NCBI RefSeq assembly: GCF_013167455.1
Contig: NZ_CP038328.1
Length of the DNA: 64,000 nucleotides
Source of the DNA: Escherichia coli O157:H7
Lineage (GTDB): Bacteria; Pseudomonadota; Gammaproteobacteria; Enterobacterales; Enterobacteriaceae
Strand: one strand, 5' to 3'
Made by a program: the position numbers and the translations under genes. How positions within the stretch are numbered: the first letter of the stretch is position 1; the number at the start of each line of letters is the position of its first letter. The notes under the pieces are model-generated. The model worked only from the letters and a program-made list of their open reading frames with translations, searched no databases and was not told the DNA's origin. Shown here piece after piece: positions 3,640 to 40,022 of the stretch.

Positions 3640-3677
3640 AAACTGGAAAACCTGGCGTCGTCATCTATTCTTAAAGG
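3640..3677 (+). promoter_or_regulatory. Sigma-S-type promoter of sdsR
   Basis: TCTATTCT (-10 TATTCT with upstream C) ending 6 nt before the SdsR 5' end. Confidence 0.45.
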
Positions 3678-3780
3678 GCAAGGCAACTAAGCCTGCATTA
3701 ATGCCAACTTTTAGCGCACGGCTCTCTCCCAAGAGCCATTTCCCTGGACCGAATACAGGAATCGTGTTCGGTCTCTTTTT
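3678..3780 (+). ncRNA. sdsR: Small regulatory RNA SdsR (RyeB)
   Basis: Sequence GCAAGGCAACTAAGCCTGCATTAATGCC...GTTCGGTCTCTTTTT matches remembered SdsR; ends in a hairpin (GACCGAA/TTCGGTC) plus T-tract; lies in the yebY-pphA intergenic region as in K-12. Confidence 0.75.
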
Positions 3781-3914
3781 ATCTGTTAAAAGCCAGAAGC
3801 ATTTCCTTCGCTGACTTTATAGTCAACCATAACACACACTCTACTGTCTGAGTCCAGCGTTTTTTAACATTCTTGTTAAGATTATGTGATCTTTAGCGCG
3901 GGAGGAAAATATTG

Positions 3915-18625: not shown

Positions 18626-19293
18626 TCCTTCCTCAATCTTGAGTAACCCCGTCGTTGAAGGGTTACTCAATTCATCCTGATTATACGCACTGTCATGGTG
18701 CAACTGCTTCAAATTAAAACTCTGGTCTGACTTCAAATAATTATCATATTATTTATTTGCGTAACGGGATATCAGAAAAAGATATTTACCCCATTAATTT
18801 ATTAGGATGTTTACATCGGATTTGTGATTAAGCGTGGTATTATTTATTAGCGAAACGTTTCTCTCTTGATTTTTTTTGCTTATTCATCAATTTTTCTTAT
18901 TTTAAATTTCCAATTCCTTTGGGATTGACTTCTCTTTGGGGTGATTGAGAGCCGTTAACTGCCTGTTTTATGAGAAAAAGTGATATAACTTTTTATTCAT
19001 TGCATAGCAGAAAATGTGATATTGCACGCACTATGTAATAACTTCTCCCACTGACCTGGAACAACTGAACTTATTGAACTATGTTAGAAACTACGTCAGT
19101 TTAAGTATCTGCGGAACTGACAAGGTTAAGCACAATGATATATCGGCGCGTATTCCGTTGCATAAGTGTGCAAAAAAAGTGGAAGACGTATCGAGATTTG
19201 TGCGTCTGATCGAGACATGTTTAAAAATGGCTTGCCATAATTAACGTTGTATGTGATAACAGATTTCGGGTTAAACGAGGTACAGTTCTGTTT

Positions 19294-19437
19294 ATGTGTG
19301 GCATTTTCAGTAAAGAAGTCCTGAGTAAACACGTTGACGTTGAATACCGCTTCTCTGCCGAGCCTTATATTGGTGCCTCATGCAGTAATGTGTCAGTTTT
19401 ATCTATGTTATGCCTGCGGGCGAAGAAAACAATCTAA
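19294..19437 (+). CDS. yobF: Small protein YobF (47 aa)
   Basis: Read directly: [47 protein letters not shown]; stop 12 nt before cspC start (yobF-cspC operon). Confidence 0.8.
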
Positions 19438-19449
19438 GGAATTTTTCAA

Positions 19450-19659
19450 ATGGCAAAGATTAAAGGTCAGGTTAAGTGGTTCAACGAGTCTAAAGGTTTT
19501 GGCTTCATTACTCCTGCTGATGGCAGCAAAGACGTGTTCGTACACTTCTCCGCTATCCAGGGTAATGGCTTCAAAACTCTGGCTGAAGGTCAGAACGTTG
19601 AGTTCGAAATTCAGGACGGCCAGAAAGGTCCGGCAGCTGTTAACGTAACAGCTATCTGA
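19450..19659 (+). CDS. cspC: Cold-shock-domain protein CspC
   Basis: 69 aa [20 protein letters not shown]... with RNP1/RNP2 motifs. Confidence 0.95.
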
Positions 19660-19703
19660 TCGAATCCACTGATCTGAAGTGTGAATACGCTTCAATCTCG
19701 CTA

Positions 19704-19731
19704 TAAAGCCTCGTCGAATGCGAGGCTTTTT
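19704..19731 (+). terminator. Intrinsic terminator after cspC
   Basis: AAAGCCTCG-TCGAAT-GCGAGGCTTT hairpin followed by T-tract. Confidence 0.7.
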
Positions 19732-19824
19732 ACTATGCTTTATCTTCGCTCCTGGCGTTCGGATATTTGCCCGCCGCGTGATTCGCGTTACACTTGCGGC
19801 CTTTAGTATCCTGCCGGAGTTGTC

Positions 19825-36935: not shown

Positions 36936-37139
36936 TTGCTTGTTTTTAAAGAAAAAGAAACAGCGGCTGGTCCGCTGTTTCTGCATTCTTACGGTAAAGA
37001 TAAAAATAAATAGTGACGCGCTTCGCAACCTTTTCGTTGGGTAATTATCAAGCTGGTATGATGAGTTAATATTATGTTAACGGCATGTATATCATTTGGG
37101 GTTGCGATGACGACGAACACGCATTTTAGAGGTGAAGAA

Positions 37140-38825
37140 TTGAAGAAGGTTTGGCTTAACCGTTATCCCGCGGACGTTCCGACGGAGATCAACCCTGACC
37201 GTTATCAATCTCTGGTAGATATGTTTGAGCAGTCGGTCGCGCGCTACGCCGATCAGCCTGCGTTTGTGAATATGGGGGAGGTGATGACCTTCCGCAAGCT
37301 GGAAGAACGCAGTCGCGCGTTTGCCGCTTATTTGCAACAAGGGTTGGGGCTGAAGAAAGGCGATCGCGTTGCGTTGATGATGCCTAATTTATTGCAATAT
37401 CCGGTGGCGCTGTTTGGCATTTTGCGTGCCGGGATGATCGTCGTAAACGTTAACCCGTTGTATACCCCGCGTGAGCTTGAGCATCAGCTTAACGATAGCG
37501 GCGCATCGGCGATTGTCATTGTGTCCAACTTTGCTCACACGCTGGAAAAAGTGGTCGATAAAACCGCAGTTCAGCACGTTATCCTGACCCGTATGGGCGA
37601 TCAGCTTTCCACAGCGAAAGGCACACTGGTTAACTTCGTTGTTAAATACATCAAACGTCTGGTGCCGAAATATCATCTGCCAGATGCCATTTCATTTCGT
37701 AGCGCCCTGCACAACGGCTACCGTATGCAGTATGTCAAACCTGAACTGGTGCCAGAAGATTTAGCCTTCCTGCAATACACTGGCGGCACCACAGGTGTGG
37801 CGAAAGGCGCGATGCTGACTCACCGCAATATGCTGGCGAACCTGGAACAAGTTAACGCTACGTATGGGCCTCTGCTGCATCCGGGCAAAGAGCTGGTGGT
37901 GACGGCGCTGCCGCTGTATCACATTTTTGCACTGACCATTAACTGCCTGCTGTTTATCGAACTGGGTGGGCAGAACCTGCTTATCACTAACCCGCGGGAT
38001 ATTCCGGGGCTGGTCAAAGAGCTGGCGAAATATCCGTTTACCGCTATCACCGGCGTAAACACCTTGTTCAACGCGTTGCTGAACAATAAAGAGTTTCAAC
38101 AACTGGATTTCTCCAGTCTGCACCTTTCTGCAGGCGGTGGGATGCCTGTTCAGCAAGTGGTGGCAGAACGCTGGGTGAAACTGACCGGACAGTATCTGCT
38201 GGAAGGTTATGGCCTGACCGAATGTGCGCCGCTGGTCAGCGTGAACCCCTATGATATTGATTATCATAGCGGTAGCATTGGTTTGCCGGTGCCGTCGACG
38301 GAAGCCAAACTGGTGGATGACGACGATAATGAAGTATCGCCAGGTCAGCCAGGTGAACTTTGCGTCAGAGGTCCACAGGTGATGCTGGGCTATTGGCAGC
38401 GTCCGGATGCTACCGATGAAATCATCAAAAACGGCTGGTTACACACTGGCGACATCGCGGTAATGGATGAAGAAGGATTCCTGCGCATTGTCGATCGTAA
38501 AAAAGACATGATTTTGGTTTCCGGTTTTAACGTCTATCCCAACGAGATTGAAGATGTCGTCATGCAGCATCCTGGCGTACAGGAAGTCGCGGCTGTTGGT
38601 GTACCTTCCGGCTCCAGTGGTGAAGCGGTGAAAATCTTCGTAGTGAAAAAAGATCCATCGCTTACCGAAGAGTCACTGGTGACCTTTTGCCGCCGTCAGC
38701 TCACGGGCTACAAAGTACCGAAGCTGGTGGAGTTTCGTGATGAGTTACCGAAATCTAACGTCGGAAAAATTTTGCGACGAGAATTACGTGACGAAGCGCG
38801 CGGCAAAGTGGACAATAAAGCCTGA
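37140..38825 (+). CDS. fadD: Long-chain fatty acyl-CoA synthetase FadD (TTG start)
   Basis: AMP-binding motif [12 protein letters not shown]; start at TTG 37140 preceded by GAGGTG Shine-Dalgarno gives the recalled 561 aa ([14 protein letters not shown]...); track ATG 37074 is an over-extension. Confidence 0.9.
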
Positions 38826-38842
38826 GCGTTAAGTCAGTCGTC

Positions 38843-38870
38843 AGACGCCGGTTAATCCGGCGTTTTTTTT
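38843..38870 (+). terminator. Intrinsic terminator after fadD
   Basis: ACGCCGG-TTAA-TCCGGCGT hairpin followed by TTTTTTTT. Confidence 0.75.
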
Positions 38871-38894
38871 GACGCCCACTAAAGAGAAAACAAT

Positions 38895-40022
38895 TTGAAT
38901 TACCAAATGATTACCACGGACGATGCGCTGGCTTCTTTGTGTGAAGCCGTCCGTGCCTTTCCGGCGATAGCCCTGGATACTGAATTTGTTCGTACGCGCA
39001 CTTATTACCCGCAGCTGGGGTTGATTCAACTTTTCGATGGCGAGCATCTGGCGCTAATTGATCCTCTCGGGATCACCGACTGGTCACCGCTGAAAGCGAT
39101 CCTGCGCGATCCGTCCATCACAAAATTTCTCCATGCAGGCAGTGAAGATCTGGAAGTGTTCCTCAATGTCTTTGGCGAATTACCACAACCCCTGATTGAC
39201 ACGCAAATCCTTGCTGCCTTCTGCGGACGCCCGATGTCATGGGGTTTCGCTTCCATGGTGGAAGAGTATTCCGGCGTTACGCTGGACAAGAGTGAATCGC
39301 GCACCGACTGGCTGGCCAGACCGCTGACCGAACGTCAGTGTGAATATGCAGCGGCGGATGTCTGGTATCTGTTACCGATCACCGCCAAGCTTATGGTAGA
39401 AACGGAGGCCTCCGGCTGGCTACCAGCGGCGCTGGATGAATGTCGCCTGATGCAAATGCGTCGTCAGGAAGTCGTTGCGCCGGAAGATGCCTGGCGTGAT
39501 ATCACCAATGCCTGGCAATTACGCACACGCCAACTGGCCTGTCTGCAACTGTTAGCCGACTGGCGACTGCGCAAGGCGCGAGAGCGCGATCTGGCGGTGA
39601 ACTTTGTCGTGCGTGAAGAGCATTTGTGGTCGGTAGCGCGTTATATGCCGGGAAGTTTAGGCGAACTGGACAGCCTGGGTTTATCCGGTAGCGAAATCCG
39701 CTTTCACGGTAAAACGCTGCTGGCGCTGGTGGAAAAAGCGCAGACATTGCCGGAAGAGGCCTTACCGCAGCCGATGCTTAACCTGATGGACATGCCGGGT
39801 TATCGTAAAGCGTTTAAAGCGATTAAGTCGCTGATTACTGACGTGAGCGAAACGCACAAGATCAGCGCCGAATTGCTGGCATCGCGTCGGCAAATCAACC
39901 AACTGCTGAACTGGCACTGGAAACTGAAACCGCAGAACAATTTGCCGGAGCTGATTTCCGGCTGGCGTGGTGAGCTGATGGCGGAAGCATTACACAATTT
40001 ATTGCAGGAATATCCGCAGTAA
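38895..40022 (+). CDS. rnd: Ribonuclease D
   Basis: 375 aa; DEDD exonuclease domain (IALDTEF) plus HRDC domains. Confidence 0.9.
   Translation: MNYQMITTDDALASLCEAVRAFPAIALDTEFVRTRTYYPQLGLIQLFDGEHLALIDPLGITDWSPLKAILRDPSITKFLHAGSEDLEVFLNVFGELPQPLIDTQILAAFCGRPMSWGFASMVEEYSGVTLDKSESRTDWLARPLTERQCEYAAADVWYLLPITAKLMVETEASGWLPAALDECRLMQMRRQEVVAPEDAWRDITNAWQLRTRQLACLQLLADWRLRKARERDLAVNFVVREEHLWSVARYMPGSLGELDSLGLSGSEIRFHGKTLLALVEKAQTLPEEALPQPMLNLMDMPGYRKAFKAIKSLITDVSETHKISAELLASRRQINQLLNWHWKLKPQNNLPELISGWRGELMAEALHNLLQEYPQ

Follow-up and report, generated by a model that had tools for sequence, protein, structure and literature searches.

Initiation of fadD at a UUG Codon and the SroD RNA at the fadD 3' End in an Escherichia coli O157 Chromosome

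The fadD locus of Escherichia coli raises two questions: at which codon translation of the gene begins, and what the RNA that ends at its terminator represents. Both were addressed in a 64-kb window (the whole stretch of DNA that was analyzed) from an E. coli O157-type chromosome, in which the region 37074-38870 holds fadD, the gene for long-chain acyl-CoA synthetase, flanked by yeaY and rnd. The account reached here, which we regard as highly probable, is one of ordinary fadD expression from a UUG codon at 37140, with SroD as a stable 3' fragment of the fadD mRNA. Both the UUG start and SroD are already known and have been in the literature for decades.

Translation Start of fadD

In the RefSeq annotations of O157 and K-12, the coding sequence of fadD extends from 37140 to 38825 on the + strand, with a TTG start and a TGA stop at 38823-38825 (1686 nt, 561 amino acids). 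The longest open reading frame (ORF), 37074-38825, is opened by an ATG at 37074 and would encode 583 amino acids. Pairing energies with the 3' end of 16S rRNA were calculated for both codons. The TTG is preceded at a distance of 5 nt by the Shine-Dalgarno sequence GAGGTGA (37129-37135, + strand; GAGGTG at 37129-37134), for which a value of -11.7 kcal/mol was obtained; among 3000 positions drawn at random from the window, this falls at about the 1st percentile. For ATG 37074 the value was -3.7 kcal/mol, which is at background level (median -3.1 kcal/mol). A sequence-only reading of this DNA had assigned a GAGGTG Shine-Dalgarno sequence to the TTG and had found none for the upstream ATG. Both statements agree with the sequence and with these energies. 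That reading took the TTG as the start and named initiation at ATG 37074 as the finding that would refute it; the RefSeq annotation and the family model and codon comparison described below bear out the TTG.

The 583-residue ORF scored 1170.1 bits with the NCBIfam FadD equivalog NF006523, above the curated cut-off of 884. Model positions 1-560 of 561 align with residues 23-582, and position 1 coincides with the residue encoded by the TTG. For acyl-CoA ligases that are more distant, the models begin within 1-3 residues of this point. The product carries the Pfam domains AMP-binding and AMP-binding_C. No differences were found from E. coli FadD (b1805, UniProt P69451), with which it shares the length of 561 amino acids, the TTG start, and a promoter controlled by FadR, CRP, and ArcA.

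The locus was compared among 80 Enterobacterales species retrieved using the FadD protein (81 sequences in the leader comparison, 79 species for the Shine-Dalgarno energies); Citrobacter amalonaticus AUH_CA_2023_1 was left out because its fadD is broken. The codon aligned to TTG 37140 is TTG in 75 species, GTG in 5, and ATG in none; the UUG is never upgraded to AUG in this sample. A strong Shine-Dalgarno sequence is always present before the start (median -13.2 kcal/mol). The ATG at codon -22, corresponding to ATG 37074, occurs in only a subset of the 80 species, and in several of those that lack it the frame is interrupted by stops between codon -22 and the TTG.

Published work (PMC3460868) puts the transcription start of fadD 60 bp before the start codon. 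Counted from TTG 37140, this distance places it at A 37080. ATG 37074 lies 6 nt upstream of that position, between the -10 element and the start and thus inside the -10/start region, and it is therefore absent from the mRNA. Translation of a 583-residue product from this codon, in favor of which stands its position as the first ATG of the longest ORF, is already effectively refuted, and we give it next to no credence. In addition to its location upstream of the published transcription start, it has a Shine-Dalgarno energy at background, it is missing in many species, the FadD family model begins at residue 23 of the long ORF, and RefSeq does not use it.

The 5' untranslated leader of fadD (37080-37139, + strand, 60 nt) is unusually unstructured. 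A search for conserved structure in it found none (consensus energy -0.68 kcal/mol), and 198 of 200 shuffles fold better than the leader of E. coli does (z = +1.93). This is expected around a weak start codon that depends on an open, strongly pairing ribosome-binding site. Five independent lines, namely RefSeq, the family model, the transcription start, codon conservation, and the leader, agree that TTG 37140 is the start of fadD. N-terminal sequencing by Black et al. in 1992 reportedly gave Met-Lys-Lys-Val-Trp, and the TTG is said to have been named the initiator in that work. Ribosomes initiate at UUG 37140 by way of the very strong Shine-Dalgarno sequence GAGGUGA in an unstructured leader and produce the 561-residue FadD.

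An In-frame AUG in the fadD Leader

Within the 60-nt leader, a conserved GGGG is followed, after a 5-nt spacer, by an in-frame ATG at 37107 (37098-37109, + strand), 11 codons (33 nt) upstream of the TTG, a third candidate beside the two codons that the sequence-only reading had compared. Two in-frame starts of fadD can thus be envisaged: AUG 37107 might give rise to a minor, N-terminally extended form of 572 amino acids, or it might act as a ribosome-loading or competing site that modulates the weak UUG 33 nt downstream. We consider either role quite unlikely. The case for it comes from conservation. An ATG is found at exactly -33 nt in 70 of the 81 sequences, and the frame to the TTG is open in all 70. 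GRGG is placed 5-6 nt upstream of the AUG, as GGGG in E. coli and as GAGG in Erwiniaceae, Pectobacteriaceae, and others. The conserved leader block GGGGYUGYGAUGACGACGAA is not explained by RNA structure, none of which was found in the leader.

Changes at the three codon positions were counted by parsimony on a tree of 70 taxa. From -30 to -1 before the TTG, 49, 43, and 79 changes were obtained at positions 1, 2, and 3, respectively, i.e. an excess at the third position, and codons 2-4 of the putative extension gave 10, 13, and 38. In the same frame further upstream the numbers were 41, 69, and 40. The period-3 signal of the extension is, however, far below that of the true fadD coding sequence, where 12, 6, and 93 changes were counted, and codons 2-4 comprise nine alignment columns only. 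The Shine-Dalgarno energy of AUG 37107 is moderate, -5.9 kcal/mol compared with -11.7 kcal/mol for TTG 37140. Several Yersiniaceae and Edwardsiella lack the AUG, and in Chimaeribacter it is not in frame. The FadD family models begin at the UUG, and the N terminus that Black et al. reportedly determined is that of the UUG start. No entry for fadD peptides or start sites corresponding to AUG 37107 was found in the searched supplements of N-terminomics and ribosome-profiling papers.

SroD at the fadD 3' End

The sequence-only reading had also suggested that the 3' end of fadD, through its terminator, corresponds to SroD, and had named a location of sroD elsewhere as the finding that would overturn this. 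A search with the Rfam model of SroD (RF00370) gave a single match in the 64-kb window, at 38784-38869 on the + strand, with 115.2 bits compared with a gathering score of 50 (E = 8.8e-24) and with model positions 1-86 of 86 aligned. The suggestion is therefore correct: the full-length match covers the end of fadD in the orientation of the gene, precedes rnd, and stops at the intrinsic terminator of fadD. The RNA starts with the last 42 nt of fadD coding sequence and the TGA stop, continues through a 19-nt spacer into the terminator hairpin ACGCCGG-UUAAU-CCGGCGU, and closes with a U run. In K-12 MG1655 the identical sequence is found with the same score at 1888017-1888102 on the - strand, overlapping the end of b1805 (fadD). 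The RNA is the same as the Rfam SroD, which goes back to the RNomics screen of Vogel et al. (2003), with a full-length match, the fadD-rnd context, and no sequence difference. SroD has been described as encoded at the fadD 3' end and generated from its 3' untranslated region (3'UTR) (PMC5874903 and a further paper). As a separate observation, the RefSeq feature tables of NC_000913.3 and NZ_CP022050.2 (L001) have no RNA gene entry for sroD, despite the full-score Rfam match.

The intrinsic terminator ACGCCGG-TTAAT-CCGGCGT followed by T8 was located by a terminator scan at 38845-38870 (+ strand; stem-loop 38845-38863, T run 38863-38870). With a 9-bp stem followed by T8, SroD has the tail of at least 6 U that characterizes a rho-independent terminator. 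The E. coli 86-mer folds into a 5' hairpin and the terminator, with -30.8 kcal/mol and z = -2.8. The family is limited to the Enterobacteriaceae proper; of 20 representative genera scored, 9 exceed the Rfam threshold.

SroD structure was compared in an alignment of 44 distinct sequences. In the terminator, 97.7-99.7% of the cells are paired, and three compensatory pairs are present. The two upstream helices drawn in the Rfam RF00370 consensus are unsupported by this comparison: 66-68% of their cells are paired, which is no better than with shuffled partners (282/500), and no covariation was found. Judged by this alignment, the terminator hairpin is the sole SroD element that is supported by comparative structure. 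The spacer between stop codon and terminator, which is the sole non-coding single-stranded part of SroD, is the most variable segment of the alignment. When the 3'UTR spacer was shuffled species by species against the coding part, the results were mixed: p values of at most 0.05 were obtained in 14 of 42 scored sequences, with z ranging from +1.3 to -5.2. In Escherichia/Citrobacter, Kosakonia/Phytobacter, and Buttiauxella, the native 3'UTR shows greater complementarity to the SroD coding part than its shuffles do.

A Candidate rnd Promoter and the Shared Terminator Hairpin

The gene downstream, rnd (RNase D; 38895-40022, + strand), has a TTG start and 375 codons for amino acids in the K-12 annotation, and its product contains Pfam 3'-5' exonuclease and HRDC domains. 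Synonymous variation at the fadD end facing it was measured as third-position entropy (H3) in 12-codon windows of 55 ungapped fadD genes with 71-100% nucleotide identity. The lowest value in the whole gene was found for codons 548-559 (38781-38816), with H3 of 0.416 compared with a gene mean of 1.077. Conservation in this segment is concentrated in two blocks, GTGACG at 38788-38793 and GACAAT at 38811-38816, which are separated by a variable 17-bp spacer. Two conserved blocks 17 bp apart form a σ70 promoter pattern, and we infer that 38788-38816 (+ strand) is a candidate promoter of rnd, located within the 3' part of fadD and also within the 5' half of SroD. The predicted transcription start would be near 38823-38827, about 70 nt before the rnd UUG. 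In 1989 Zhang and Deutscher reportedly placed the rnd promoter before a hairpin that resembles a terminator and precedes a run of eight U, and the position of the candidate fits this placement.

The rnd leader studied by Zhang and Deutscher (1989, 1992) has the same hairpin and U8 upstream of the rnd Shine-Dalgarno sequence, and the UUG is conserved. According to the papers that cite this work, the rnd mRNA has a UUG start and a U-rich translational enhancer. The enhancer works in cis on rnd translation, not on fadD, and its overlap with SroD is rarely noted. One hairpin with its U-tract does three jobs: it ends fadD, forms the 3' end of SroD, and sits in the rnd leader.

A candidate outer helix, formed by CGTCA (38839-38843) and TGACG (38870-38874), would enclose the terminator and the U-tract (38839-38874, + strand). 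In the alignment 83.6% of its cells are paired, and two of the five pairs are changed on both sides (CGUCA/UGACG in E. coli, CGCCC/GGGCG in Enterobacter). The minimum-free-energy fold of 38823-38920 from E. coli contains the helix as well. Its formation would be confined to read-through or rnd transcripts, and this evidence is suggestive only.

In Yersinia, Serratia, and relatives (L058-L070), an ACGCCGG...CCGGCGU hairpin occurs about 30-70 nt past the fadD stop in an extended form (CAACAACGCCGG...CCGGCGTTGTTG), followed by GUUGUGUUUG and not by a U run. Efficient termination at this hairpin is unlikely, and fadD and rnd may be co-transcribed in these organisms. The retention of the hairpin in Yersiniaceae without a U run suggests that it has a role beyond termination.

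The start of rnd itself is annotated differently in the two strains, at TTG 38895 in K-12 (375 amino acids) and, by the NCBI pipeline PGAP, at ATG 38907 in O157 (371 amino acids). Of the 80 species, 76 have TTG and 3 have GTG at the codon of 38895. At the codon of 38907 only 56 of the 80 species have ATG, and 8 have CTG, TAC, TTT, ATA, or TTA. Since the TTG/GTG codon is conserved and the ATG is not, the PGAP annotation of rnd in O157 is probably 4 codons short.

Origin and Function of SroD

No promoter-like site upstream of 38784 was found by consensus scan or by inspection of the sequence. The 5' end of SroD lies in the only AU-rich stretch nearby, GAGAA/UUACG (slash, cut), a sequence similar to RNase E sites that have a U two nt past the cut. 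Transcription of fadD begins at A 37080 from the promoter controlled by FadR, CRP, and ArcA and ends at the intrinsic terminator at 38845-38870, presumably at 38870 itself. SroD, the 3'-terminal piece of this transcript, would be released by an endonucleolytic, RNase E-like cleavage at 38783/38784. It would outlive the body of the mRNA owing to the terminator hairpin and, in E. coli, to the stable 5' hairpin. An origin of SroD as an attenuated rnd leader, transcribed from the rnd promoter, was also considered and rejected. There is no -10-like hexamer before 38784, and the promoter-like blocks predict a start near 38823-38827, which is downstream of the SroD 5' end.

SroD is probably a stable 3' by-product of the fadD mRNA. 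If so, the conservation that defines the Rfam family would result from overlapping constraints, namely the FadD C terminus, the candidate rnd promoter, and the shared terminator and U-tract. Several findings are in line with this. Biofilm, motility, and fimbriae were unaffected when SroD was overexpressed (PMC4606813). Its abundance changed 1.27-fold in an hfq mutant of Klebsiella, i.e. it was not Hfq-dependent (PMC3136514). The spacer is variable, the 5' helices are at the level of shuffles, and the synonymous constraint falls into two blocks with a promoter-like distance of 17 bp.

The alternative is that SroD is a trans-acting regulatory RNA derived from a 3'UTR, as are CpxQ, SroC, SdhX, and Vibrio FarS, and that it couples fadD transcription to other mRNAs by base-pairing. 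Like CpxQ (from cpxP), SroC (gltI), SdhX (sdhCDAB-sucABCD), and FarS (Vibrio fabB), SroD has its 3' end and its terminator in common with a parent mRNA, is reported to be processed from a longer transcript, and is co-regulated with its parent gene. The RNA is discrete and conserved, ends in a terminator with a U8 tail, has an (ARN)n motif at positions 31-54, and is kept in 9 Enterobacteriaceae genera. The strongest synonymous constraint of fadD falls in its 5' half. SroD is regulated with growth phase, being up-regulated in transition phase (PMC4676190), and FarS from the fabB 3'UTR (cited in PMC9329746) provides a precedent among fatty acid genes. However, CpxQ, SroC, SdhX, and FarS have Hfq dependence, conserved seeds, and defined targets, none of which has been demonstrated for SroD. 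In the literature found, no target or phenotype of SroD is reported, and a role of SroD in the fadD-dependent phenotype of PldA signaling has been excluded by experiment (PMC5874903). Its sole non-coding single-stranded stretch is poorly conserved and differs between genera, so that no conserved single-stranded seed exists outside the coding constraint. The conserved part coincides with coding sequence and with the promoter-like blocks, and the upstream helices lack covariation. A trans-acting function is therefore somewhat unlikely in our estimation.

Some points weigh against the account of UUG initiation with SroD as a by-product of the mRNA. A functional 5' part of SroD could account equally well for the extreme synonymous conservation that codons 548-559 show. 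The 8-U tail and the (ARN)n motif are both compatible with Hfq binding. The lineage-specific complementarity of the spacer hints at selection on SroD structure. The candidate rnd promoter matches the consensus at 8 of 12 positions, which is below the threshold of the consensus scan. At the other end of the gene, the conserved in-frame AUG 37107 means that the UUG may not be the sole start of fadD.

Promoter and FadR Operators of fadD

The -10 region of fadD (TAATAT/TATTAT) and the transcription start A 37080 occupy 37067-37080 (+ strand), and the block GTTAATATTATGTTAAC is kept across genera. FadR operator site 1, AGCTGGTATGATGAGTT, read against the FadR consensus (PMC9329746), lies at 37051-37067 (+ strand), i.e. 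at -29 to -13 from the transcription start, and overlaps the promoter. FadR operator site 2, GGCTGGTCCGCTGTTTC, lies at 36965-36981 (+ strand), at -115 to -99, and equals the fadD-FadR-site2 probe (PMC3460868). The spacing between the two sites is 69 bp in the window, compared with the 68 bp stated in the same paper. Site 2 sits within the terminator-like inverted repeat of yeaY at 36956-36982, a hairpin that was detected in the terminator scan. The positions -29 to -13 and -115 to -99 are reportedly those given by Black et al. in 1992. The position of the distal FadR operator of fadD was termed puzzling in a recent review (PMC9329746).

The inverted repeat at 36956-36982, directly after yeaY, is perfect (AGAAACAGCGG-CTGGT-CCGCTGTTTCT) and terminator-like on both strands. 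The consensus scan also returned a promoter-like TTAATA-18-TATCAT at 37066-37095. It was not adopted, as it is not conserved between genera and conflicts with the published transcription start.

Gene Order and Other Features of the Window

The RefSeq gene order is yoaA, tsaB, yeaY, fadD, and rnd, all on the + strand of the window. A segment of 2.1 kb around the 3' and 5' features of fadD is 100% identical with E. coli O157 chromosomes, and the fadD region was found in 5425 of 5426 complete E. coli genomes. In the omitted Citrobacter amalonaticus sequence (L051), fadD stops after 52 codons owing to an extra G in a G-run (1501-1660), which points either to a pseudogene or to an error in the long-read assembly. 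Elsewhere in the window, at 3640-3784 and 19274-19734, Rfam models matched the antisense RNAs SraC/RyeA and SdsR/RyeB, with 175 and 114 bits, and a thermoregulator leader of the cspA type, with 137 bits.

Implications

For annotation, the results mean that ORF tracks based on the longest ORF mis-start fadD by 22 codons and that PGAP probably mis-starts rnd by 4 codons in O157 genomes. Two mildly new leads emerge. The first is AUG 37107, a cheap, testable candidate for alternative initiation in the fadD leader; if it were used in vivo, an unrecognized layer of translational control would act on the gate-keeping enzyme of fatty acid uptake. The second is the promoter-like synonymous constraint inside SroD. 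An rnd promoter inside SroD and the shared terminator and enhancer may contribute more to the conservation of the Rfam family than an sRNA function does, which is relevant to those who search for SroD targets.

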